Source: an uncultured Erysipelotrichaceae bacterium
GTDB taxonomy: Bacteria > Bacillota_I > Bacilli_A > Erysipelotrichales > Erysipelotrichaceae
Direction of reading: 5' to 3'
DNA length: 32,000 nt
NCBI GenBank assembly: GCA_964401865.1
Contig: CAYNZZ010000002.1
Coordinates: 60,001-92,000 of the forward strand
This document shows, in pieces, positions 6,377 to 23,505 of this stretch (within the stretch, counting starts at the first letter, position 1; each line of letters opens with the position of its first letter). A program made the position numbers and the translations under genes. The notes under the pieces were generated by a model. The model was not told where the DNA came from. It was given only the letters and a program-made list of their open reading frames with translations, and did not search any database.

Positions 6377-8533
6377 ATGTATTTATTAGAAGTTTATGTC
6401 ACTAATTCCAATTTAAAAGTTGATCGTCCTTTTGTCTATTATTCACTTAAAAAGGTAAATAAATACGCAAGAGTCAAGGTTGACTTTAATAATAAAAATA
6501 CAACAGCTATTGTGTTTGATATTAAAGAATATAGTAACTCTTTAGAAGAACTGAATAATGATTATGGTTATCAAATTAAAGAAATAAGATCCATTGTTGA
6601 TGATAGTCCTGTTTTGAATGATAAGCAATTAGAGATAGCTAGATGGTTAGCCAAAACAACAATTTCGCCATTTATATCATGTTTGAATGTCATGCTTCCC
6701 AAAATCCTTAAAACATCCACAAATATAAAAGAGAGTAAAAAAGAAATATTTCTTATCAAAAAAAATAGTGATAGAGTTTTGACCAAAAAACAAAACGAAG
6801 TTTTAAATATGTTACCAGAAGAAATAACACTTAAAGATGCAAATAAAATTTCTCCTTCTATCATCAAGAAATTAGAGGAAAGCGGATATCTTTCAAGAGA
6901 AACTAGAGAAAGCGAATATAAGAATATTAAACCGCTGAATATCGTAAAATTTAAGAAATTAACAAGCGACCAACAGGCGGTTTACGATAAAATGATTCAA
7001 AGTGAAAAAATTGTTTCTCTATTATTTGGGGTTACCGGTTCAGGCAAGACTGAGGTGTATCTTCATCTTGCAAGATTTTACCTTTCTTTAGGTAAGGAAG
7101 TACTTATCTTGGTGCCTGAAATATCTTTGACACCTCAGATGATTTCAAGAGTTAAAGAACGTTTTTCAGATGTTATATTTTTTCATTCAGGTCTTAACGA
7201 CACTGAACGATATGAACAGTATAAAAGGGTAATAAGAAGCGAAGCTAAAATTGTTGTCGGCACAAGATCTAGTATCTTTTTGCCATTTAATAATCTTGGA
7301 TTAATTATTATTGATGAGGAACACGATTCATCATATAAGCAGGACTCTATTCCGTTATATGAAACCAGAAATGTCGCTAGAAAAATAGCAATGATGCATA
7401 ATGCAAAGGTTTTGTTGGCTAGCGCAACTCCGTCGCTAGATAGCTATACTAGAGCTTTAAAAGGCGATTATAATTTGTTTAGATTAGACAAGAGAATCAA
7501 TTTATCTTTACCCAAGATTTCTATTGTTGATATGTCTTTGATGCGAAATAAAAAATCTAGTATCATCAGCAATGAATTGATAAAAGATATTGATGAAGTT
7601 TTATCCAAGAAACATCAAGCGATCATTTTACTGAATAGACGAGGTTATTCGCCGATTATCAAATGCGCTGATTGTGGGGAAGTGATGAAATGCCATGACT
7701 GTGATATACCTTTGAGCTATCATAAAGATGAAAATATTTTAAAATGTCATCAATGTGGTAGAACATACAAGATTATCAAAAATTGCCCTAATTGTCATAG
7801 TAATGATTTAGTTTATTATGGCTTTGGAACTAAAAGAATAGAAGAAGAGATTGAAAGGTTATTTCCAAGTGCTAGAGTTAAAAGAATGGATAAAGATAGC
7901 ACAAATAAAAAAGGAGCACATGAGCGGATTCTGAGCGAATTCGACCGACATGAAATTGATATTTTGATTGGTACTCAAATGATTGCTAAAGGACTAGATT
8001 ATCCATTGGTTGAATTAGTTGGTATTATTAATGCCGATGCCGGTCTAATGCATCAAGATTACAATGCTGCTAAACAAACTTTTGACTTACTGATGCAAGC
8101 ATCTGGAAGAAGTGGCCGTAGTGATATTGAAGGAAAGGTTGTAATACAGGCTTTTAATCCAAATCATTATGTTTTAAAAGCTGTTATGAAACAGGACTAT
8201 AATTACTTCTATAACATTGAAATGAACTATCGAAGAAAAGCCGGATATCCACCATATACTCATTTAATAGCTATTTATTTACATGATATATATGTCAATA
8301 GATTGGAAAATAGTAAAAAAATACTTATTGATTTACTTAGTGACTGTACATTTCGTAAATATCCGTTAGTAGATATAAATAAAATAAACAAGTTACATCG
8401 ATCGAGAATTATTATTGTAGATAAGGATTTGATTTTGATGTTGAATTATTTAACTAAAATAGTTAATTTATATATATCTAATAGTAACATATCTAACATA
8501 AAGATCGATATTGATCCTAATTATCTGGAGTGA
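6377..8533 (+). CDS. priA: primosomal replication-restart helicase PriA
   Basis: Walker A GVTGSGKTE, DEEH box IIDEEHD, and a Cys-rich zinc module (CADCGEVMKCHDC...CHQCG...CPNCHS). 718 aa. Confidence 0.93.
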   Translation: MYLLEVYVTNSNLKVDRPFVYYSLKKVNKYARVKVDFNNKNTTAIVFDIKEYSNSLEELNNDYGYQIKEIRSIVDDSPVLNDKQLEIARWLAKTTISPFISCLNVMLPKILKTSTNIKESKKEIFLIKKNSDRVLTKKQNEVLNMLPEEITLKDANKISPSIIKKLEESGYLSRETRESEYKNIKPLNIVKFKKLTSDQQAVYDKMIQSEKIVSLLFGVTGSGKTEVYLHLARFYLSLGKEVLILVPEISLTPQMISRVKERFSDVIFFHSGLNDTERYEQYKRVIRSEAKIVVGTRSSIFLPFNNLGLIIIDEEHDSSYKQDSIPLYETRNVARKIAMMHNAKVLLASATPSLDSYTRALKGDYNLFRLDKRINLSLPKISIVDMSLMRNKKSSIISNELIKDIDEVLSKKHQAIILLNRRGYSPIIKCADCGEVMKCHDCDIPLSYHKDENILKCHQCGRTYKIIKNCPNCHSNDLVYYGFGTKRIEEEIERLFPSARVKRMDKDSTNKKGAHERILSEFDRHEIDILIGTQMIAKGLDYPLVELVGIINADAGLMHQDYNAAKQTFDLLMQASGRSGRSDIEGKVVIQAFNPNHYVLKAVMKQDYNYFYNIEMNYRRKAGYPPYTHLIAIYLHDIYVNRLENSKKILIDLLSDCTFRKYPLVDINKINKLHRSRIIIVDKDLILMLNYLTKIVNLYISNSNISNIKIDIDPNYLE

Positions 8534-8535
8534 AA

Positions 8536-9741
8536 ATGAATCAAAGAACATTAGCTTTTCAAATATTAAATGCAACCATCAATAACGGCGAATATGCTGG
8601 CTTGATGATGAAAAACGAATTAAATAAGCTTCCTTTAATCCAAAGGGCTTTTGTAACAGAACTCGTAAATGGTGTCTTGAGACATTTTTATGAGCTTCGT
8701 GCCCAATTCAAAGATGAGGGTAAGATATCTTCTAAAGTTGAAATCATTTTATCAATGGCTACATATGAACGTTTTTTTCTTAAACAAAAAGACTATGTCG
8801 TATTTAATGAGTATCCAAACTTAGTCAACAAGAAAGGCGAGAAGAGTTTTATTAGTGCTATTTTGCATAAATTGAACAATTATGTCGAATATCTTGGTGA
8901 TGATGATGAGAAGTTATCGATTCATTATTCTCTTCCTTTATGGATGATTAAACTTATAAAAAAACAATATCCTCAAAGGGAATTTAGAACATTTTTAGAT
9001 AATGTAAATAAAATTCCACAAGTTTTTTATCGAATAAACAAGCGCAAGACAAACTATGCTTACCTTAGTGACAAATATGATATTAAAATAATCAATGAAG
9101 ATACTTTTACGTCTAATCAAAATTTGATCAATACTAGTGACTTTAAAGAAGGCTTATTTTATATCCAAGATGTTAACAGTTCTAAGTTGTATCATTATTT
9201 AGGGCTTGAAAAAGACAACACTTTATTAGATGTCTGCAGCGCACCCGGTGGTAAGCTATTCAATGCTTTGGATATCATAAAGCCAACTAATGCGTATGCT
9301 AATGATTTTCATGAACATCGTTTAAATTTGATTAAAATGACAGCGAAGAAGCTTGGTTTTGATGAGATTAATTATTTAAATCATGATGGACGCTATTTAA
9401 AAGATAAGATAAATTTGGAATTTGATCGCATTTTATTAGATGTGCCTTGTTCTGGGCTTGGAATCTTGAGACGTAAACCAGATTTGAGATATCACATTAA
9501 ACCTGAAAATCTTGATGAATTACAATTACTGCAAATGGAACTGGTGGAAAACAACATTCCTTTGTTAAAAAAAGGTGGAATCCTTGTCTATTCAACTTGT
9601 ACAATTAATAAAAAAGAAAATGAAAGGCAGGTAGCGGCTTTGCTTGAAAGGCATAGCGATATGCATCTTTTGGAAGAAAAGACTTTTGTTGGCGAAGATG
9701 ATGGCGATTTATTTTATGTCGCTAAAATCAAAAAAGATTAG
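8536..9741 (+). CDS. rsmB: 16S rRNA (cytosine967-C5)-methyltransferase RsmB
   Basis: NusB-like N-terminal domain plus SAM-MTase motifs DVCSAPGGK, DVPCSGLG and the catalytic Cys in YSTCT. GGAG at 8527-8530, then ATG at 8536 (alternative GTG at 8530 overlaps the priA stop). Confidence 0.9.
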   Translation: MNQRTLAFQILNATINNGEYAGLMMKNELNKLPLIQRAFVTELVNGVLRHFYELRAQFKDEGKISSKVEIILSMATYERFFLKQKDYVVFNEYPNLVNKKGEKSFISAILHKLNNYVEYLGDDDEKLSIHYSLPLWMIKLIKKQYPQREFRTFLDNVNKIPQVFYRINKRKTNYAYLSDKYDIKIINEDTFTSNQNLINTSDFKEGLFYIQDVNSSKLYHYLGLEKDNTLLDVCSAPGGKLFNALDIIKPTNAYANDFHEHRLNLIKMTAKKLGFDEINYLNHDGRYLKDKINLEFDRILLDVPCSGLGILRRKPDLRYHIKPENLDELQLLQMELVENNIPLLKKGGILVYSTCTINKKENERQVAALLERHSDMHLLEEKTFVGEDDGDLFYVAKIKKD

Positions 9742-9843
9742 TATAATGAAAGTGTGAAAAACTATTTCTTCAATTATTGGAAAAGCCTTTAAATAAGGGC
9801 TTTCCTGTAATTGCGTTTAATAGAAAACAGTCATAAATTAACA

Positions 9844-9867
9844 CTGTAACTAACATAAACTAACAAA
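9844..9867. repeat. left boundary direct repeat (attL-like): CTGTAACTAACATAAACTAACAAA
   Basis: Matches 16849-16873 except for a single-A indel. It contains an internal tandem AACTAACA x2. Confidence 0.75.
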
Positions 9868-9870
9868 TTA

Positions 9871-9900
9871 AGAGGGCAAATTAGCCCTCTATTTTTATTT
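9871..9900. terminator. hairpin AGAGGGC-aaatta-GCCCTCT plus T-run
   Basis: 7-bp GC-rich stem (9871-9877 / 9884-9890) followed by ATTTTTATTTT on the plus strand. The stop codon of the integrase relic (9883-9881) lies in the loop. It now acts as the first strong terminator downstream of rsmB. Confidence 0.7.
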
Positions 9901-10030
9901 TATTTACTTCTTGTATTAGATATTTAATAGGTGCGTGTGTGTAAACATCATCGGTTATATCTTGACTAGAATGTCCCATAATTTTTTTGCGTGCATATTC
10001 GCTAAGAGCCATAGAAATCGCCAAGCAAGC
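9881..10030 (-). pseudogene. 3'-terminal relic of a tyrosine recombinase / phage integrase (49 codons)
   Basis: The minus-strand frame reads ACLAISMALSEYARKKIMGHSSQDITDDVYTHAPIKYLIQEVNKIKIEG*. The (L/M)GHSS...T...YTH block is the box II / catalytic-Tyr signature of tyrosine recombinases. The frame is closed upstream by TGA (10033-10031) and nothing upstream looks integrase-like. Confidence 0.65.
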
Positions 10031-13000
10031 TCATACGAAGGTATTAAGAATATAGTATCTAATACTAATACCGCACAAGATATAGAGTATAACTTCTTAA
10101 AAGCATTTAGGAATGCAAAGATTGACACTTCAAATATTAAAGTAGCTGGAGATTTAGTGTATAGTACGAATTCTAATTTTGAAGATGCCGTTGAATCCAT
10201 TAGTAATGGAACATTTACTAGTTCAGCTAATGCTATAGAAGTGCGAAATAATTCTCCTAAATGGATGACTGATTTGGGCTACAACGATTATCCGATGCTT
10301 ATGACAGAAAATCATATAAAAAATGGCATGGGAATTGGCGCGAAAGGAAACCAACACAATATTTCAAAAGAGACTTTTAAGCAACTTCCTAAATTATTAG
10401 AAGATCCAATCGGTGTATTTAAGTATCAGAATGATAGTATTGTCGCTTTAGTAAAAGCAATAGATAATGATAATCGTGTTATGTTAGTTGCGATTAAACC
10501 TGACGGAAGTGGAAAATATAACAATGTTGATATTGATTCAAACTTTATTTTAAGTTCTTATGGAAAAGAAAATTTAATTAGTTATTTTAACAAAAAACTT
10601 GATGGAAATCTAATTTACCCAGCCGGAAAAACAAAAAAAGATATCATTACTGAGACTCTTTGGCTCCAATTGCCAAAGAAACAGTCTATCGGAAGCTCGA
10701 GGCTCCAATCGCCAGGGACATCCGATGGATATCTTTATGACAATAATATCTCAAATAATGAAACAAATGTCAATAAGAATTCTTTACCGATAGAAGATTA
10801 TTCAAATTCTACTAATACAGAAACAGAGACAAATAATCGCAAACAAAAGCAATTAGATATTATTCTAAAAGAAAATCCAGTTTATGATGATTACCACACT
10901 TGGATTAGTAATATAGATGATATAAAAACATTTGAAGAAACACTCCAAGATAGTGATTGGGAAGGTTGGGAAGAAAGCGATTTCGATCCTGATTATACAG
11001 GGCATATGGCAAAAGAAGCGTTGAATAATGGCGAAATCACCGTATACAGTTCAAATCCTATTGAAAATGGTATCTTTGTAACTCCTTCAAGAATGGAAGC
11101 AGAATCATATTCTAGCAATGGACAAGTGTATTCAAAGAAAATGAATTTGGATGATATAGCCTGGATAGATCCAACGCAAGGAATGGTAGCTAAGATTGAT
11201 AATAACAAATATTCTATTGATCTAAATAATGATGAGCAACAAAATAATTCTTTTAATATAAATAGAGCTAAGAAACTATCTCCTAATTCTTTTACCAAAA
11301 ATGGAAGTTTATTAAGTACAATTAAACAATTATTGAATATGAAAAAAGACCCAGGAAGATATGGTTTTGTGGTTACTGATACAAACGATGCTCTTGACTT
11401 TATTGGTATAAATAGTGAGATTTATCTAGATAATAAAACTAGAAGTAAAATCAACAATAAGCACGGTATAAGCGATGAATTAATAGCTGACTTATTAGAT
11501 AATATTGACGATTATGTAGTATTGGGAACTGATTATGTTGACAATAGAAACAAAACACCTTTAAAAACTGCTATCTTAGAAAAAGGAGATAATATTTATA
11601 TTCTTTCCTTAAAAGGTAAGGATGTTAGAGGGTATGAAGTAAATAATATTTCGAGTTTATATGATAAAGACAATTTCTCTGAATATTTGAATGGTTTAAT
11701 TGAAAATGGCAACAAACTATATAAAAATGAAAAAAGCGACAATTTTGTATCGCGTTTTACCCTCGCAAGGGGTAGCGTGGATACGGCTGTCGCTTCTAAT
11801 AACAATATCTCAAATAAATCATCAAATGTCAAATCTAACGAAACATTAGATTATATAGAAGATCAATACAATATCAAAGATGAAAGAATAAATGAACTAT
11901 ATAACAAAATGGTAGATGAAATAAAGAATGATGGTTTTATATATGATGATACTTATAATGAGATAGTTGATTATATTGTAGAGAATGCCAAAGTAGAAAA
12001 CATCAATCCATTAAAAGAAGATGCTAAGGAATTCTTTAAAAACAGAACTTTCTATTTGCCATCAAAATATTCAAGAGATATATCAGGCGAGAATATGTTC
12101 ATCACTAATCAAAGTTTACCTAACGGAATGAAACTTACTAAAAATGTGAACGCTGAAAGTTTAGATTCTGCGCTTCATGAATTTGAAAGCAAACATCCGG
12201 AAATAGGGGACAGTTGGGGCATTGATGAAACCGACCGTTTAAATAGTCTATTAAATTTATTGAGAAGTGATGATTATGTTTCTTTAAAACAAATTAACGG
12301 CGAAGAAATGTTAAGACAAGATGCTATTAGTGATTTAAATAGATTTATTGATGATATATATCTTGAAAATGATATCCAAAAATATAATGATTCTTTAAAA
12401 GAATACGGATCTATTAAACAAGGCGAAAGTCCAAAAACGGATTTTGAAGCACCTAAACAAACCGATGCCAATACCAAGACCAGACAATTTGTAAGAACGA
12501 TAGGTGAAAGCGGTGTTATGGATAATGAAGCCTTAAAGGCCGAAATAGGCAAAGGGACATTTGCTTATCGCCCTGAATCTAATAAAAGATTAGTTGAAAG
12601 AGCTAAAAAAGAATTAGACGGTTTAAGTAAAGAAGATGCTTTATATAGGTTCTATACAAGTAAAAACAATTCATCTAGAATTGCAAAGGGTGAAGTCTTA
12701 TTAAATTACTTAGGTTCTATCGGTGATACAGAAAATGCCATTAAGGTTGCTTCTGAATTAGCCACTCAATTAACTGAGGCCAGTAAACAAACTCAGGCAT
12801 CTAGAATTTTAAAACGCTTAACTCCTGAAGGTAGACTTGTAACTTTAGAACAAAACATCAATAAAATTCAAAATATCCTTGATATCAATCATGGAAATAA
12901 AGAAATTGAAATTGAAGTTCCAACTGAATTAAAAGAAAAAGTATTAAACAGTAAGAATGAAACCGAGTTAAATCAAGCGTTAGAAGAAATATCTAGAAAT

Positions 13001-15502
13001 GTCGCTGAACAGATACCGCCAACATTAAAAGATAAACTTGATACTTGGCGTTATTTATCAATGCTTGGAAATCATAGAACTCATATCCGTAATATACTTG
13101 GCAATGCTATCTTTTCGCCGGTTGTCGATATTAAAAATTATGTAGGAACAGCTATAGAATCTTTCGCTCAAAAACAAGGTCTTATCGATACCAGAACTAA
13201 AACTTTATTACACAATCATATGAATGTCAGTGATAAAGCATTATACGATTTTGCCAAAGCTGATTATGATAGTTTCGCTAAAAATATTATCCAAGAAAAT
13301 GGTAAGTACGATATTAGCGAACTGGTGCAAAAATATAAAAAAGCCTTTAAAGACAAAGGTGTAGGTAAATGGATAAATAAGGCTGCGGAATTAAATGGAA
13401 AATTATTAGATGCGGAAGATATCCTTTTCTCTAAAAACAGATACGCAAAATCTTTAGCTCAATATATGAAAGCTAATAATCTAACCGAGAACGATGTAAA
13501 TACCGAACTATTCCAAAAAGGTCAAGATTATGCGATGCAAGAAGCCTTAAAGGCGACATATCGTGATGATAACATGATAGCTAATTGGATAAACGAATTT
13601 GCCAACATAAATAAAGTTACTCGATTTATTACAGATGCAGTGCTTCCTTTTAAGAAAACACCTATGAACATTGTCAAAAGAGGTATTGAGTATTCGCCAG
13701 CTAATCTTTTATACACTGTAACTAAAAGGGCCGGCGATCTAAAAAGCGGAAAGATTACCGCTAATGAATATATCGATAGTTTATCGCAAGGTTTAACCGG
13801 AACAGGTATTGCCTTATTAGGAATGTTTTTAGCATCAAAAGGCATCTTGAAAATTACAGACGATGATAAGGACCGTAAACAAAGATACGATAATGAGTTA
13901 GGAGAACAGACTTATTCAATTCAATTTCCTTTTGGTTCTTATACTATAGACTGGGCATCTCCGGTAATTATGCCAATGGCAGTTGGTGCGGAATTATGGC
14001 GACAACTATTTGAGGAAAGTGATGATAATTTTGGCGATAGAGCCTTAGACATGATTACTTCGGTAGCTGAACCAATATTCGAAACTTCAATGTTGTCGGG
14101 GCTAATGAATATGATAAATTCTTATGGCGATGGAAACAGTGCAAAAGCGGTGGATATGATACTCGGTGCTACAAGTTCTTATGCACTTCAATATATCCCA
14201 ACAGGATTAGGTCAAGTAGCTAGAATAATAGATGGTACGCAAAGAACCACATATCCAAATAAAGGGGCTGTGGATAAATTTAAGCGACAACTATTTAATA
14301 AAATTCCGTGGTTGTCTATGTTGAACCAACCATCTATCAACTCTAAAGGCGAAGAAGTACAAAGAGAAGACTTAGGAATGGGAATGTTTGGTAGATTCTT
14401 ACTTGAATCGTCTCCAGGCTACTATAAATCAAATAAGTCTGATGAGTTCTCTGATGAGCTGTTAAGACTATATGACGCGACAAGCGAAGATAATGTATTA
14501 CCTGCAAGCAGTACAACTCAAATCAGTTATGATGGGGAAAAATACAAATTATACGATGAAGAATTTACAAATTTCCAAAAGACCAAGAACAAGTTAGGCT
14601 ATGACTATGTACAAGAGTTTATGAATTCAATGGGTTATTCTTCTTTGAATGATAGTGAAAAAGCGGGTATCATAAGCGATATTAGAGATTATGCAACCAA
14701 ACAAGCCAAGAGTGAGTTCTTAGGAACAAGAGGAGTCGATTTCGAAGACACCGGACTAGATAAGATTAATGGTGCATTAGATAATGATATAAACTTATAT
14801 GATTACTTTGCTACCAAAAATGAATATAATAGTTTAAATGGCGATGATAAGAAATTAGATTATATTGATCATCTAGAAGATAGCGATATTTCAAGTTCAG
14901 GTAAAAACTATATGTATGATATACAGTACGGAGATTCAAAATTCGCTAATTCAATTAACGATTTTGCCGATGATTACAATGTTGACGATAAAACAGCATT
15001 TGAAATCAAGAAGACCAGTACCATTGAAGGAGTGAAAGATAGTAACGGTAATACTATCCCTAACTCAAAAGCTCTGCAAGTAAGAAAGGAACTTGAAGAT
15101 TTAGGACAGTATGATAATTTAATTGATTATCTGTCAGATAACGGACTAAAGCCAAATGATATCGGTTTAACTAAGAAAGTAGTTTCTATGAGCGATAATG
15201 AATTTATGAGCGAGTATGAATCGATGTTTAGCGGTAGGGCAGTAGCTGATATTCCATCAACAAAACGCACTCGTTCAAATACTTCTAAAAAGCAAACACA
15301 AGCAATGATTAAAAAGATAAAGAATATAAGTGGTGATACTTATAAACAAATAAATGACATTCTTGAAAGGTTTGTTTATAACAAGAAATCAGTAAATTCT
15401 AGCAAAGTTAAAGTAGAATTTCAAAAAGCCGGTTTAACAGACATAATTCAAAAATATTTAAAAGAAAATCCATATGTCGATAAGTCGGTGTTTGGACTAT
15501 AA
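9935..15502 (+). CDS. giant 1855-codon ORF, phage/ICE polyvalent-protein-like, probably 5'-truncated (true start unknown)
   Basis: Uninterrupted 5.57 kb frame in AT-rich DNA. Contains two paralogous ~165-aa modules, a middle domain, a long helical region and a hydrophobic core. The first ~35-50 codons are simply the antisense of the integrase relic. No SD-preceded start is found in the first ~400 nt. Confidence 0.6.
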   Translation: MCVNIIGYILTRMSHNFFACIFAKSHRNRQASSYEGIKNIVSNTNTAQDIEYNFLKAFRNAKIDTSNIKVAGDLVYSTNSNFEDAVESISNGTFTSSANAIEVRNNSPKWMTDLGYNDYPMLMTENHIKNGMGIGAKGNQHNISKETFKQLPKLLEDPIGVFKYQNDSIVALVKAIDNDNRVMLVAIKPDGSGKYNNVDIDSNFILSSYGKENLISYFNKKLDGNLIYPAGKTKKDIITETLWLQLPKKQSIGSSRLQSPGTSDGYLYDNNISNNETNVNKNSLPIEDYSNSTNTETETNNRKQKQLDIILKENPVYDDYHTWISNIDDIKTFEETLQDSDWEGWEESDFDPDYTGHMAKEALNNGEITVYSSNPIENGIFVTPSRMEAESYSSNGQVYSKKMNLDDIAWIDPTQGMVAKIDNNKYSIDLNNDEQQNNSFNINRAKKLSPNSFTKNGSLLSTIKQLLNMKKDPGRYGFVVTDTNDALDFIGINSEIYLDNKTRSKINNKHGISDELIADLLDNIDDYVVLGTDYVDNRNKTPLKTAILEKGDNIYILSLKGKDVRGYEVNNISSLYDKDNFSEYLNGLIENGNKLYKNEKSDNFVSRFTLARGSVDTAVASNNNISNKSSNVKSNETLDYIEDQYNIKDERINELYNKMVDEIKNDGFIYDDTYNEIVDYIVENAKVENINPLKEDAKEFFKNRTFYLPSKYSRDISGENMFITNQSLPNGMKLTKNVNAESLDSALHEFESKHPEIGDSWGIDETDRLNSLLNLLRSDDYVSLKQINGEEMLRQDAISDLNRFIDDIYLENDIQKYNDSLKEYGSIKQGESPKTDFEAPKQTDANTKTRQFVRTIGESGVMDNEALKAEIGKGTFAYRPESNKRLVERAKKELDGLSKEDALYRFYTSKNNSSRIAKGEVLLNYLGSIGDTENAIKVASELATQLTEASKQTQASRILKRLTPEGRLVTLEQNINKIQNILDINHGNKEIEIEVPTELKEKVLNSKNETELNQALEEISRNVAEQIPPTLKDKLDTWRYLSMLGNHRTHIRNILGNAIFSPVVDIKNYVGTAIESFAQKQGLIDTRTKTLLHNHMNVSDKALYDFAKADYDSFAKNIIQENGKYDISELVQKYKKAFKDKGVGKWINKAAELNGKLLDAEDILFSKNRYAKSLAQYMKANNLTENDVNTELFQKGQDYAMQEALKATYRDDNMIANWINEFANINKVTRFITDAVLPFKKTPMNIVKRGIEYSPANLLYTVTKRAGDLKSGKITANEYIDSLSQGLTGTGIALLGMFLASKGILKITDDDKDRKQRYDNELGEQTYSIQFPFGSYTIDWASPVIMPMAVGAELWRQLFEESDDNFGDRALDMITSVAEPIFETSMLSGLMNMINSYGDGNSAKAVDMILGATSSYALQYIPTGLGQVARIIDGTQRTTYPNKGAVDKFKRQLFNKIPWLSMLNQPSINSKGEEVQREDLGMGMFGRFLLESSPGYYKSNKSDEFSDELLRLYDATSEDNVLPASSTTQISYDGEKYKLYDEEFTNFQKTKNKLGYDYVQEFMNSMGYSSLNDSEKAGIISDIRDYATKQAKSEFLGTRGVDFEDTGLDKINGALDNDINLYDYFATKNEYNSLNGDDKKLDYIDHLEDSDISSSGKNYMYDIQYGDSKFANSINDFADDYNVDDKTAFEIKKTSTIEGVKDSNGNTIPNSKALQVRKELEDLGQYDNLIDYLSDNGLKPNDIGLTKKVVSMSDNEFMSEYESMFSGRAVADIPSTKRTRSNTSKKQTQAMIKKIKNISGDTYKQINDILERFVYNKKSVNSSKVKVEFQKAGLTDIIQKYLKENPYVDKSVFGL

Positions 15503-15530
15503 AGGGAGCTTAATTGCTCCCTGTTTTTTA
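15503..15530. terminator. terminator hairpin AGGGAGC-ttaatt-GCTCCCT plus T-run, shared by the convergent giant ORF and abi
   Basis: 7-bp stem directly after the TAA stop (15500-15502), followed by GTTTTTTATT. The abi stop codon is at 15540. An identical copy lies at 16784-16804. Confidence 0.8.
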
Positions 15531-15539
15531 TTGTTAAAA

Positions 15540-16475
15540 TCATATTTTTTCTTGTTTTATGCAATGACTATTTATTAAGTATAAAGTACTTTTCCAGTTT
15601 TTTTCAAAACCGTAGTCTTTGATAAAATCAGCTTTATAATGTTTTTCAATATTTTTTATTTTTTCTATTACTCGCTTACCCAAACTTTGATTAGGATTTA
15701 CATATAATAAAGACAAAACCAAAGCATATGTAGAACTTGAATCGAATGAACCTAAAGCGATTTTGGTCGGATTGTATTGCATAGGTTTAATAGGGTGTTT
15801 TTTTCTATATAATCTTTGATAATGGCAACATTGATTTCTTAAATAAGAAACAGAATGGTAAAGGCTTTCCAATTTTTCGTAGCTAATATCGTTATATCCA
15901 ACTTTTAAAACAGCCTTTTTATCTTTTGTTTTTAGTGTTGAGTAAAATTTTGAAATCATGCCTAGAGACATCAGTTCAACTAATGCCCAGATAGGAATGA
16001 AACCGTTATAAACTTTGTTATGGTGTTGAACGATTAGGTTATATGAATTCTTTTTATTAACATCACTGCAACGTTTTAAAAAATCTATAACTTCACAATA
16101 ATTTGATTGATTTTTAATAAAAAAGTTTGACGGTTCTAGATAACCCAAAGAACCATAAGTTAATGCAAAATAATTAGCTATTTGTGTTTTTAAATACACC
16201 TCGATATCATTTATCAATTCAAAAAGAGCAGAACGAATTTCTTTATCTACTATGTATATGTTATAAATTTGCTCGAATGTTATATTATCTTTAAATTTAT
16301 CGTTAGAATCTAAAAAATCAATCATATATCCACTTAAACGATAGTAATTCTCGTGTTTAAGAATACATAAAGCATTATCTGGATTTTTGACAATTAGTTT
16401 TTTATCGTTAATAAGGTGATTTAATTGTTGTTCAAAAGTTAAGGCAGGTTTCATTTTTGCTTCTTTCTTTTCCAT
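15540..16475 (-). CDS. abortive-infection protein, Abi_2 (AbiD/AbiF-like) family, HEPN-type
   Basis: Family-typical YYRLSGY near the N-terminus and SYLRNQCCHYQRLY (R-x4-H) near the C-terminus. Start chosen at ATG 16475 (MEKKEAK...) because AGAGG lies 7 nt upstream. The ORF-track start at 16508 has no SD. Confidence 0.85.
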   Translation of the reverse strand: MEKKEAKMKPALTFEQQLNHLINDKKLIVKNPDNALCILKHENYYRLSGYMIDFLDSNDKFKDNITFEQIYNIYIVDKEIRSALFELINDIEVYLKTQIANYFALTYGSLGYLEPSNFFIKNQSNYCEVIDFLKRCSDVNKKNSYNLIVQHHNKVYNGFIPIWALVELMSLGMISKFYSTLKTKDKKAVLKVGYNDISYEKLESLYHSVSYLRNQCCHYQRLYRKKHPIKPMQYNPTKIALGSFDSSSTYALVLSLLYVNPNQSLGKRVIEKIKNIEKHYKADFIKDYGFEKNWKSTLYLINSHCIKQEKI

Positions 16476-16542
16476 AAATACCTCTAAAAAAAGAGCATTC
16501 TGGGCCACATTGTTAAGAGGTGCGAATGCTACGATTAATCAA

Positions 16543-16570
16543 ATTATACCAATTTTATTAAAGTTGTCAA
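16543..16570 (-). promoter_or_regulatory. consensus sigma-A promoter for abi (TTGACA-16 nt-TATAAT)
   Basis: On the minus strand: TTGACA = 16570-16565, a 16-nt spacer, TATAAT = 16548-16543. It lies about 65 nt upstream of the abi ATG. Confidence 0.75.
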
Positions 16571-16625
16571 ATTATTTGTGTTGTCTAAACGCTAAAATAA
16601 ATATTATTTTATATATTGAGAGAAG

Positions 16626-16658
16626 AAAAAAAGATGATACAATGTTTCGCCTCATCTT
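16626..16658 (-). terminator. possible minus-strand terminator/insulator upstream of the abi promoter
   Basis: AAGATGA (16631-16637) / TCATCTT (16652-16658) with a 14-nt loop. On the minus strand it is followed by T7 (16632-16626). The stem is weak and AT-rich. Confidence 0.35.
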
Positions 16659-16783
16659 GAAAGTGATGATATATAAGGTTTTTAAAACCGTAACATCATA
16701 TTGCGACTCACTAAAAAGAACTCAGACATTTATCACACCAAAGGGCAGAGAAACATTTAGAACATTGTTTTTTAAAGATTATT

Positions 16784-16810
16784 AAGGGAGCTTAATTGCT
16801 CCCTTTTTTG
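16784..16810. repeat. second, identical copy of the AAGGGAGCTTAATTGCTCCCT terminator hairpin
   Basis: A 21/21 match to 15502-15522, followed by TTTTTTG. Flanking similarity extends a few nt upstream (GAYTATWAAGGG) and more loosely downstream (TTGTTTWATGCAAT). Confidence 0.85.
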
Positions 16811-16848
16811 TTATTTTTGTTTAATGCAATATTTTCTTAATATTTACT

Positions 16849-16873
16849 CTGTAACTAACAATAAACTAACAAA
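16849..16873. repeat. right boundary direct repeat (attR-like): CTGTAACTAACAATAAACTAACAAA
   Basis: Matches 9844-9867 with one extra A. It lies 48 nt upstream of the rlmN ATG. Confidence 0.75.
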
Positions 16874-16921
16874 AAGTTCACTTTATGCCCTAAATAAAAG
16901 AAAATAATATATAATGAAAGA

Positions 16922-17956
16922 ATGAAAAAAAATATCTACGATTATAGTTTTGAAGATTTAGAAAACTACTTATTAGAAAACGGAAGTAAGAAGTTTCATG
17001 CTAAGCAGATTTTTAAGTGGCTATATGAAAAAAGAGTAAAAGATTTTACTTCAATGAGCGACTTATCAAAAAAGTTGCAAGAATTGCTCATAAGCGATTT
17101 CGATATACCTAGTTTAGAAGTAGCTGCTAAACAGGTGTCACGCGATGGAACTACAAAATACTTGTTTAAGCTTAGCGATGGTGCGCTAATCGAAAGTGTG
17201 TTAATGATTTTTGATTACGGAAATAGTGCATGTCTTTCTACTCAGGTTGGATGTAATATGGGTTGTACTTTTTGTGCGAGTGGACTTTTAAAAAAACAGA
17301 GAAACTTGACAGTTGGAGAAATAGTTTTACAAGTTTTAGAGATCCAAATGTATCTCGATGAAAAAGATGAACGTCTAGGAAATTTGGTTTTAATGGGTAC
17401 TGGAGAGCCCTTTGATAATTATGAAAATGTCATGAAAGCTTTGAGCATCATTAATCATCCATATGCTTTAGAAATCGGTGCAAGACATATTTCTATCTCG
17501 ACTTGTGGTTTAGTACCGATGATTTATCGTTTTGCTGACGAAGATGTGCAATACAATCTGGCCATTTCTTTACATGCTTCAAATAATGAACTCAGATCTA
17601 AACTTATGCCCGTGGCAAGAGCTTATAGTTTAGAAGAACTATTTAAAGCATTAAAATATTATAGTGATAAAAACAATCGTCGTTTAACTTTTGAATATTT
17701 ATTGCTTAAGGATATAAATGACAAATCATCTAATGCTGATGAATTAAAAGAACTGTTAAGTGGTTTAAATGCATATATCAATCTAATACCTTATAACAGC
17801 GTTAAAGAGAATGATTATACATCTTCCAGCGAGAAGGCGACCTTGGAATTTTACGATATGCTTAAAAAAAGAGGAGTAGCTGTTACTTTGCGACAGAAAA
17901 AAGGCGATGATATCGATGCTGCTTGTGGACAATTGAGAGCGAATTATAAAGGATAG
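16922..17956 (+). CDS. rlmN: 23S rRNA/tRNA adenine-C2 methyltransferase RlmN (radical SAM)
   Basis: Radical-SAM Cys triad GCNMGCTFCASG and the C-terminal catalytic Cys context DDIDAACGQL. 344 aa. Confidence 0.93.
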   Translation: MKKNIYDYSFEDLENYLLENGSKKFHAKQIFKWLYEKRVKDFTSMSDLSKKLQELLISDFDIPSLEVAAKQVSRDGTTKYLFKLSDGALIESVLMIFDYGNSACLSTQVGCNMGCTFCASGLLKKQRNLTVGEIVLQVLEIQMYLDEKDERLGNLVLMGTGEPFDNYENVMKALSIINHPYALEIGARHISISTCGLVPMIYRFADEDVQYNLAISLHASNNELRSKLMPVARAYSLEELFKALKYYSDKNNRRLTFEYLLLKDINDKSSNADELKELLSGLNAYINLIPYNSVKENDYTSSSEKATLEFYDMLKKRGVAVTLRQKKGDDIDAACGQLRANYKG

Positions 17957-22257: not shown

Positions 22258-23505
22258 ATGAAACAAATATATGCAGCATTAGAAATCAATAGTAAAGAAA
22301 TACGGCTTCTAATAGGGGAGTATTTTAATACTAGGATTAATATTATTAAATTGGAAAAAACTATTGTCGAAGGAATTGAGAATTATCGCATAGTAAACCA
22401 TGAAAAAGTTAAGAATTCAATTATTAAGACGATAAATGATGCCAGTAAAATGCTTGGCGCCAAGATTGAAAAAGTTATTCTTATTATTCCGCCATATAAT
22501 TTTAAACGTTATCCTTTAAAGGTTAATATCAAGACATCAAATGGTTTTATATCTAAGACAGATGCAGCACGAGCAGTGAAAAAAGCTATGCAGACTAAAG
22601 TAGATAATGATTTAACTATTATCAACGCTGTGTGTGTCAAATATACAGTTAATGGTATTTCATCAAGAAGACTTCCTGAAAAGGAGAACAGTGATGAATT
22701 ATCTGTTGATATCGATCTTCTTTGTGCGGATAAAGTTCTTACTTTCGAGTATGCGGCAATGTTGGATGATTGTGGCATTGAGATAATGGATATCTGTTTA
22801 GACCTATATGCAATATGTAAAGAAGCAGCTCTGTTTGAACAGACACTTAACCAAAATATTGTCTTGATTAAAACGGATTATGATAATACAGAATTTGCTT
22901 TATTATCTAAAGGCAAATTAGTAAATTCAGAACTTCTGTTTGATGGCTTCAATATGATTTTGAATGATGTATACGATAAATTGCATATTCCTATTTCCAC
23001 AGTGTCTAGGCTTGTAAAATTCAATACATCCTACAAGAAGGAATATATTGATGATGCGGTATATGCATGGGTTGATGAAAATGGTGGAAATATATCGGTC
23101 AATGAGAAAGAGATTAGCGAAATGGCATATCCTTCATTAAAGAAATATATTGACATTATTGCCAAAAGTTTAAGACCGATTTTAGAATCACATGATACGT
23201 CAATTGTAATTACAGGCGAAATGGCTAGTATGGAATCGTTTATTGATTTATTATCTAAAGAGTGCAATGCGAGTGTTAAAGCTTATTTTCCTGATACCAT
23301 TGGTGTTAGAGACAGTAATTTAACTGCTTTATATGGTTCTTTCTTTGTATATCGTGAAATGGCAAATATTAAGGGATTAAAAGAAAGCAGTGTTGATTTA
23401 TTGGAATTCGAAAATATTGTTGATCGAAAAATTGATGATGTCGAAGGTGAATCTTTGACCGGAAAAATTAAGAGCTTGTTTGAAATGAATAAGAGGGAGA
23501 AATAA
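22258..23505 (+). CDS. ftsA: cell division protein FtsA
   Basis: 415-aa actin/SHS2-type protein immediately upstream of ftsZ, with a typical N-terminus ([18 protein letters not shown]). Confidence 0.88.

Follow-up and report, generated by a model that had tools for sequence, protein, structure and literature searches.

A 32,000-nt stretch of DNA from an uncultured Erysipelotrichaceae bacterium (contig CAYNZZ010000002.1; hereafter the window, whose numbering is used throughout) contains an open reading frame (ORF) of 1855 amino acids (aa) on the + strand (9935 to 15502), with GTG as its first codon. We find that this ORF is very probably what survives, the 3′ two-thirds, of a giant polyvalent phage gene in a defective prophage, and most likely a young pseudogene. 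The locus is an ordinary prophage remnant, and the huge startless ORF beside an abortive-infection (Abi) gene is a product of normal prophage decay.

The other five frames of the same stretch have maximal stop-free runs of 50 to 142 codons, so that, at the 31-32% G+C of the ORF DNA, a frame of this length is far beyond chance. This bears out the claim of an earlier note on this DNA, made from the letters alone, that the frame is or recently was coding. The earlier note had also reported that it lacked a recognisable start, Shine-Dalgarno sequence and promoter, and our scans agree. The in-frame ATGs at 9971 and 10265 are not preceded by a Shine-Dalgarno motif, none of the in-frame starts within the initial 1.5 kb of the ORF has a convincing one, and there are no + strand promoter-like sites between 9500 and 10440. 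By contrast, several host genes of the window have clear GGAGG-type motifs. The strong terminator noticed just upstream was likewise recovered: a terminator scan found a G+C-rich hairpin (stem 9871 to 9890) that scores on both strands, with a T-run after the stem on the + strand, and that would block read-through from the host gene rsmB. Compared with an intact expressed gene, the ORF lacks a start codon with a ribosome-binding site, a promoter, and full length relative to its homologues.

The basis for the missing start became apparent when the 5′ end was aligned to other proteins. Homology starts at ORF residue 34 (YEGIKN, nt 10034), and none of the homologues aligns to residues 1-33. Residue 34 corresponds to residue 730 of homologue P0001 (2522 aa) and to residue 824 of P0007 (2314 aa); full-length relatives are 2,300-2,800 aa. 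As judged from these alignments, the gene has lost its N-terminal ~730-824 codons, and the description of the protein as truncated in the earlier note was correct. A metallopeptidase-like HExxH motif, which lies at residues 634-761 in the closest relatives and before the break point wherever it could be mapped, is absent from the ORF. What remains is a 5′-truncated polyvalent virion protein gene of 1822 native codons and a stop (10034 to 15502, + strand). The first 33 codons (9935 to 10033) are non-native: here the frame stays open opposite the remnant of a tyrosine integrase gene that reads from the minus strand (9881 to 10009) and of which translation and tblastn identify the last 42 codons and the stop (ALSEYARKKIMGHSSQDITDDVYTH...IEG*). 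The minus-strand translation of this segment is ALSEYARKKIMGHSSQDITDDVYTHAPIKYLIQEVNKIKIEG, followed by a stop. In tblastn searches of phage genomes it matched the C-terminus of the annotated integrases of phage Amboise (E 2e-6, 57% identity) and phage Maintenon (E 5e-6), as well as other Firmicutes phage integrases. Amboise and Maintenon are phages of [Clostridium] innocuum, which NCBI taxonomy places in the Erysipelotrichaceae. Pfam did not recognise the 49-aa integrase fragment, and a BLASTP comparison with the integrase of one relative was not significant. The integrase stop codon (9881-9883) sits within the loop of the upstream hairpin, an overlap that had gone unnoticed in the earlier note.

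Integrase homology stops by 10009 and polyvalent homology begins at 10034, which places the deletion junction at 10010 to 10033. One internal prophage deletion explains the fusion: it brought codon ~730-824 of the giant gene up against the 3′ end of the integrase gene, which reads from the other strand, and this is why the start signals are missing.

The two remnants lie in a 7.17-kb island between rsmB and rlmN that is bounded by TATAATGAAAG at 9742 and at 16910. These flanking direct repeats (D3) are 7168 nt apart, with an exact 11-nt core and 29 of 36 positions identical when extended. The attL core (9742 to 9752) comes right after the rsmB stop codon, with imperfect likeness to attR continuing to 9777, and the attR core (16910 to 16920) lies right before the rlmN ATG at 16922. 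In eight related species the site is empty, the rsmB stop being followed by 10-35 nt with a TATAAT and then by the rlmN start. A survey of loci from 80 related genomes showed no such island up to 9 kb from rlmN. The island holds no phage genes other than the integrase remnant, the truncated virion gene and an AbiD gene, and an Rfam search of it returned a single chance-level match. Att direct repeats with an empty site in relatives, together with a disabled integrase and the absence of essential modules, are the features of a defective prophage. The left phage arm also carries the repeat ACACTGTAACTAACATAAACTAACAAAT, with AACTAACA twice (9841 to 9868), and a copy of this AACTAACA-containing repeat (D9) is present in the right arm (16846 to 16873). 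From their sequence and placement, these ~28-nt repeats with two AACTAACA units in both arms are plausible candidates for integrase arm-binding sites. Separately, the similarity between the att regions (9742-9777 and 16910-16945) exceeds the 11-nt core and mimics the first rlmN codons; it seems that a look-alike of the rlmN gene start, beside which the phage integrates, is built into the phage arm.

We found 655 homologues of the ORF protein, the listed ones mostly 1,700-3,200 aa. The closest among 5.8 billion proteins is 44-47% identical, and an IMG/VR scan gave no close relatives. The lack of a relative closer than 47% ruled out analysis of non-synonymous to synonymous substitution rates (dN/dS) and comparisons of populations or strains. 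We examined the gene order around the giant gene in five relatives, in all of which it lies among phage virion genes (portal, head, tail-fibre, lysis). On the contigs of L001 (36.6 kb) and L086/L087 (36.9 kb) the order is P22-type portal, major head protein, collagen-like tail fibres, CHAP endolysin/holin and the giant gene, followed by a convergent integrase gene, an S24 repressor and early genes, among them RecT. The prophage in L089 ends with the giant gene, which adjoins host smpB, and in L088 the giant gene is inside the virion module, next to a faint match to an SU10-type adaptor. No tail-tube, sheath or tape-measure genes were seen in the relatives, and a short-tailed virion is therefore likely. 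The intact relatives are thus likely to be ~37-kb temperate phages of short-tailed type, in which the giant gene is typically the last late gene and converges on the integrase gene across attP. If attP does lie between these two genes, an integrated prophage has one at each end, and a single internal deletion would join the remnants of both on opposite strands. The layout expected from such a deletion is the layout in the window.

The protein itself has the make-up of a polyvalent protein. Pfam searches of ORF segments, a check proposed in the earlier note, identified two MuF_C domains (PF18819): one at residues 137-228 (10343 to 10618; E 1.4e-15 on the segment) and one at residues 504-600 (11444 to 11734; E 6.5e-09). 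MuF_C was the only family found in eight segments at E up to 5. Iyer et al. class this domain as a PBECR-type predicted RNase (PMC5512222). The earlier note had taken the two regions to be paralogous modules; both do match MuF_C, but they show no significant likeness to each other by pairwise BLASTP. Searches of NCBIfam yielded no family for the ORF or for the neighbouring AbiD, and PADLOC none for the ORF. In the homologues we find ART-PolyVal, LPD23, LPD3, PBECR3, SprT-like and nucleotidyltransferase domains in varied combinations (Pfam accessions PF18760, PF18838, PF18812, PF18798 and PF10263). The window therefore encodes a very large polypeptide (1822 residues) with at least two disparate domains from the polyvalent inventory, and five relatives encode theirs among virion genes, which in the window have been deleted. 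Collectively, these sequence comparisons support the classification of the ORF product as a phage-type polyvalent protein, the character that had been proposed for it by eye.

Two further regions are common to virtually all listed homologues. The first, at residues ~300-425 (10832 to 11209), is the middle domain that the earlier note had delineated, and it proved to be a real and strongly conserved unit. It matches PHROG 13543 (E 3e-30), is mostly 56-70% identical across the aligned homologues even where the rest is only ~25% identical, and occurs in 924 cluster representatives, mostly giant proteins. Its structural model has a predicted local distance difference test (pLDDT) score of 88.6; the model has no match in the PDB and the domain no Pfam family. 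The second is a conserved, mostly helical C-terminal module of ~770 aa at residues ~850-1620 (12482 to 14794, with the best-aligned core at 13373-14641), which all 120 listed homologues cover. Its model has a pLDDT of 78 and a predicted template modelling (TM) score of 0.70. The hydrophobic core described in the earlier note falls within this most conserved module, which contains the sole strongly hydrophobic, membrane-helix-like stretch (residues 1287-1305, LTGTGIALLGMFLASKGIL; 13793 to 13849; Kyte-Doolittle mean 1.51 over 19 residues).

Searches with the C-terminal module pointed to ejection proteins. A profile alignment with hhalign matched it to the C-terminal third of internal virion protein D (gp34) of Desulfovibrio phage ProddE (probability 97.9%, E 4e-13, 370 columns), with which it shares a PF-KTP-N motif and which occupies the gp16 position in a T7-like genome; tblastn also reached internal virion protein D (E 1e-7). 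Consistent with this match, Foldseek against the predicted structures of BFVD returned internal virion proteins (E 4e-13 to 6e-11) from Synechococcus phages S-CBP2, S-RIP1 and S-CBP3 and Pelagibacter phage Eyrgjafa, with query-normalised TM scores of 0.35-0.50, a moderate similarity and to targets that are themselves predictions. Sequence, profile and Foldseek searches of the PDB with the module gave nothing. Profile homology and fold similarity were thus both found with the internal virion protein D of T7-like phages, which the C-terminal module resembles and to which these comparisons relate it. A tape-measure protein was also considered for the helical module and set aside: genes for a tail tube, a sheath or tail chaperones were not seen in the relatives, and it is internal virion proteins of short-tailed phages that the module matches in profile and in fold.

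These similarities suggest how the intact protein might work. Its C-terminal module would act as an internal virion (ejection) protein that exits the capsid with the DNA and may help to build a channel through the cell envelope. The modules in front of it, variable ones at the N-terminus and in the middle, would travel with it as effector cargo for the newly infected cell. Candidate cargo includes the MuF_C/PBECR predicted RNases here and, in relatives, the ADP-ribosyltransferase, the HExxH region and LPD domains.

For the locus as a whole we propose that a ~37-kb temperate phage with short-tailed-like virion genes integrated at TATAATGAAAG between rsmB and rlmN of an Erysipelotrichaceae bacterium. 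The integrase gene would have stood at the left end of the prophage, reading outward; at the right end the polyvalent gene would have closed the series of late genes, with AbiD after it. A single internal deletion, of ~30 kb if the genome sizes of the relatives are a guide, would then have taken out polyvalent codons 1 to 730-824, the greater part of the integrase gene, and the genes for lysogeny, replication, packaging and the virion. The apparent 5′ end of the ORF would be no more than a frame open by chance in the antisense of the integrase remnant. With the N-terminal third of the gene went every gene for building the particle. Lacking a promoter, a ribosome-binding site and any virion that could package its product, the fragment is most probably a pseudogene that is silent and, in evolutionary terms, young.

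Several observations weigh against this account. All 1822 native codons are still open and, as ~5.4% of single substitutions would create a stop, the open frame permits a neutral divergence of only ~0.2% (median) to 1% (95% bound) since inactivation; either the deletion was recent or the frame is still selected. Of 42 nearly invariant positions, 3 are altered in the ORF; as 8 of the 55 homologues fare no better, there is no clear sign of decay. Relatives at only 33-47% identity are the basis for both the short-tailed morphology and the extent of the deletion. Finally, neither T7 gp16 itself nor a solved ejectosome structure was matched by sequence or by Foldseek against the PDB. A recent deletion would account for both the missing signals and the open frame without invoking selection, and we note that the ORF carries substitutions unique to it at three positions that are at least 96% conserved (G950S, P1047H and G1257N).

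A first alternative is that the host has co-opted the truncated gene, which would still be expressed, from an internal start that escaped recognition. A membrane-inserted ejection fragment with two RNase-like modules could, for example, block or sense related phages, alone or with AbiD. The frame intact over 1822 codons, the absence of a clear excess of changes at conserved positions, and the retention of both MuF_C modules, the middle domain and the hydrophobic helix would all fit, as would the adjoining defence gene with its strong promoter. However, there is no promoter, Shine-Dalgarno sequence or native start, a terminator lies upstream, and AbiD is convergent on the opposite strand, so that no shared transcript is possible. 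The HExxH region, just upstream of the break in relatives, has been lost, the three unique substitutions fall at highly conserved positions, and the same arrangement was found in no other genome in the homologue search, the IMG/VR scan or the loci of the 80 related genomes. We consider co-option very unlikely, and highly improbable in its more specific form, in which translation begins at an unconventional internal start and the fragment serves the host side as a factor for defence or exclusion; were that so, it could hinder DNA entry of related phages or be bait for AbiD. The suggestion of a repurposed effector or sensor in the earlier note thus found no support, the missing start being explained by internal prophage deletion.

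Two other explanations concern the island rather than the protein. The junction could be an assembly artefact, the real genome having an intact prophage of which ~30 kb was collapsed in the contig. A collapsed prophage would look the same, and the relatives come mostly from metagenome assemblies. Yet the junction has no repeat able to mislead an assembler, the host flanks and the two att sites line up with related genomes, and prophages usually end in internal deletions, a commonplace fate; we regard an artefact as very improbable. Alternatively, the island could be the remnant of an integrative conjugative element and its protein a transfer-associated polyvalent protein, since the catalogue of Iyer et al. 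has ~40% of its polyvalent proteins in conjugative contexts (PMC5512222). This is barely credible here. We saw no genes for conjugation, the matches of the C-terminal module are to internal virion proteins of phages, and the portal, head, tail-fibre and lysis genes around the giant gene in five of five relatives led us to reject a conjugative origin, which the earlier note had allowed beside a phage one. Altogether, we favour a defective prophage whose giant virion gene was recently truncated.

Just downstream of the polyvalent gene, on the minus strand, lies the AbiD gene (Abi_2; 15540 to 16475), whose likely start is the ATG at 16475, preceded by AGAGGT. Its product matches Pfam Abi_2 (E 1.5e-45) and PHROG 2158, and the PADLOC AbiD profile over its full length (E 2.3e-77, profile positions 2-275 of 277). 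The promoter (16543 to 16570, minus strand) has TTGACA, a 16-nt spacer and TG-TATAAT, matching the consensus at 12 of 12 positions. Because it has its own consensus promoter, AbiD is likely still in use, and it is likely the functional survivor of the island. The terminator of the polyvalent gene (15503 to 15522, + strand) lies within the left copy of a 33-nt direct repeat (D4; 15495-15527), and the terminator scan found a second copy of the hairpin (16784 to 16805) within the right one (16777-16809). These repeats, 91% identical and each containing a terminator hairpin, bracket a 1.25-kb AbiD cassette, which suggests that they are the footprint of an accessory-gene insertion just after the polyvalent terminator that duplicated that terminator.

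The earlier note had considered it unusual for such a protein to be kept next to an Abi gene. This view was not supported, as L001 likewise carries an Abi_2 gene, beside its integrase gene, and AbiD-like genes are ordinary accessory cargo of this phage group. A comparison of L001 (17898-20460) with L086 (18626-20409) showed the integrase gene convergent on the giant gene in both and a different lysogeny module in each. The Abi_2 gene between integrase and repressor in L001 is absent there in L086, a difference suggesting that accessory defence genes move about within the group. In the window, ~210 nt (16571-16783) separate the AbiD promoter from the right-hand terminator copy. This segment contains a + strand promoter-like site (16616-16643) and a 91-codon ORF with a TTG start (16510-16785) and no family match, and Rfam found nothing here; it could encode a small transcript or be mere spacer.

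The flanks are those of a Firmicutes-type chromosome with housekeeping genes: sufCDSUB, merR, priA and rsmB upstream, and rlmN, a PP2C phosphatase, a PASTA kinase, rsgA, rpe and ftsZ downstream. RlmN of the window shares 80% identity with its counterpart in an uncultured Erysipelotrichaceae genome. The rsmB gene (8530-9741; listed start GTG) overlaps priA (6377-8533) by 4 nt, with no def or fmt between them; in many Firmicutes these two genes sit between priA and rsmB. Directly upstream of ftsZ, in the usual place of ftsA, a 415-aa ORF (22258-23505) has no Pfam match at E 1e-5. Two pairs of ORFs of the same length downstream (237 aa and 420 aa) were considered as tandem duplicates and rejected, as the members of each pair are unrelated to each other.

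What the locus offers is mainly at the level of the protein family and is modestly interesting. It documents the rsmB/rlmN junction as a phage attachment site in the Erysipelotrichaceae. In this protein family, which prophages of gut Firmicutes carry, the polyvalent protein is seemingly built on an ejection-protein chassis akin to internal virion protein D, which would be a concrete route for effector modules into the host cell. The unexplained ~125-residue middle domain combines a confident predicted fold without a known relative with a presence in more than 900 protein clusters, and may merit specialist attention.

As a remnant, the island is comparable to the Escherichia coli element e14, a cryptic prophage that retains the defence gene Lit. 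Both are att-flanked, with a disabled integrase and without virion genes, and in both an abortive-infection gene survives under its own promoter. The island differs in host phylum and phage type and in that a very long intact fragment of a virion gene remains. The intact protein is like internal virion protein D of ProddE (gp34), the cyanopodoviruses and the pelagiphage in that its C-terminal module is homologous by profile and predicted fold, and in being large, helical, equipped with a hydrophobic helix and encoded late in phages without a long tail. Here, however, that module is the C-terminal part of a far larger protein with effector-type modules in front, and the hosts are Gram-positive, with no periplasm to span. 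Like the phage-type polyvalent proteins described by Iyer, Burroughs, Anand, de Souza and Aravind in 2017 (PMC5512222), the protein is a giant chain of unrelated modules, with MuF_C/PBECR here and ART-PolyVal, LPD23, LPD3, PBECR3 and SprT-like domains in homologues, and the gene sits with virion genes in intact relatives. Unlike those proteins, this copy is without its first 730-824 codons and the accompanying phage genes, and its middle domain and 770-aa C-terminal module match no Pfam family, including the LPD families. A further parallel is gp47 of the Stx phage phi24B, a 2811-aa polyvalent protein with a MuF-C domain that proteomics detected in virions and that has been proposed to be an ejection protein (bioRxiv 10.64898/2026.04.10.717836). 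A phage database search detected no sequence similarity of gp47 to this family, the LPD domains of gp47 differ and its host is Gram-negative, but both are giant polyvalent proteins with a MuF-C domain in what is, for ours, probably also a short-tailed phage. The proposed ejection of effector cargo is in line with this virion finding and with the model of Iyer et al., which predicts that polyvalent proteins are packed into the particle and then injected (PMC5512222).

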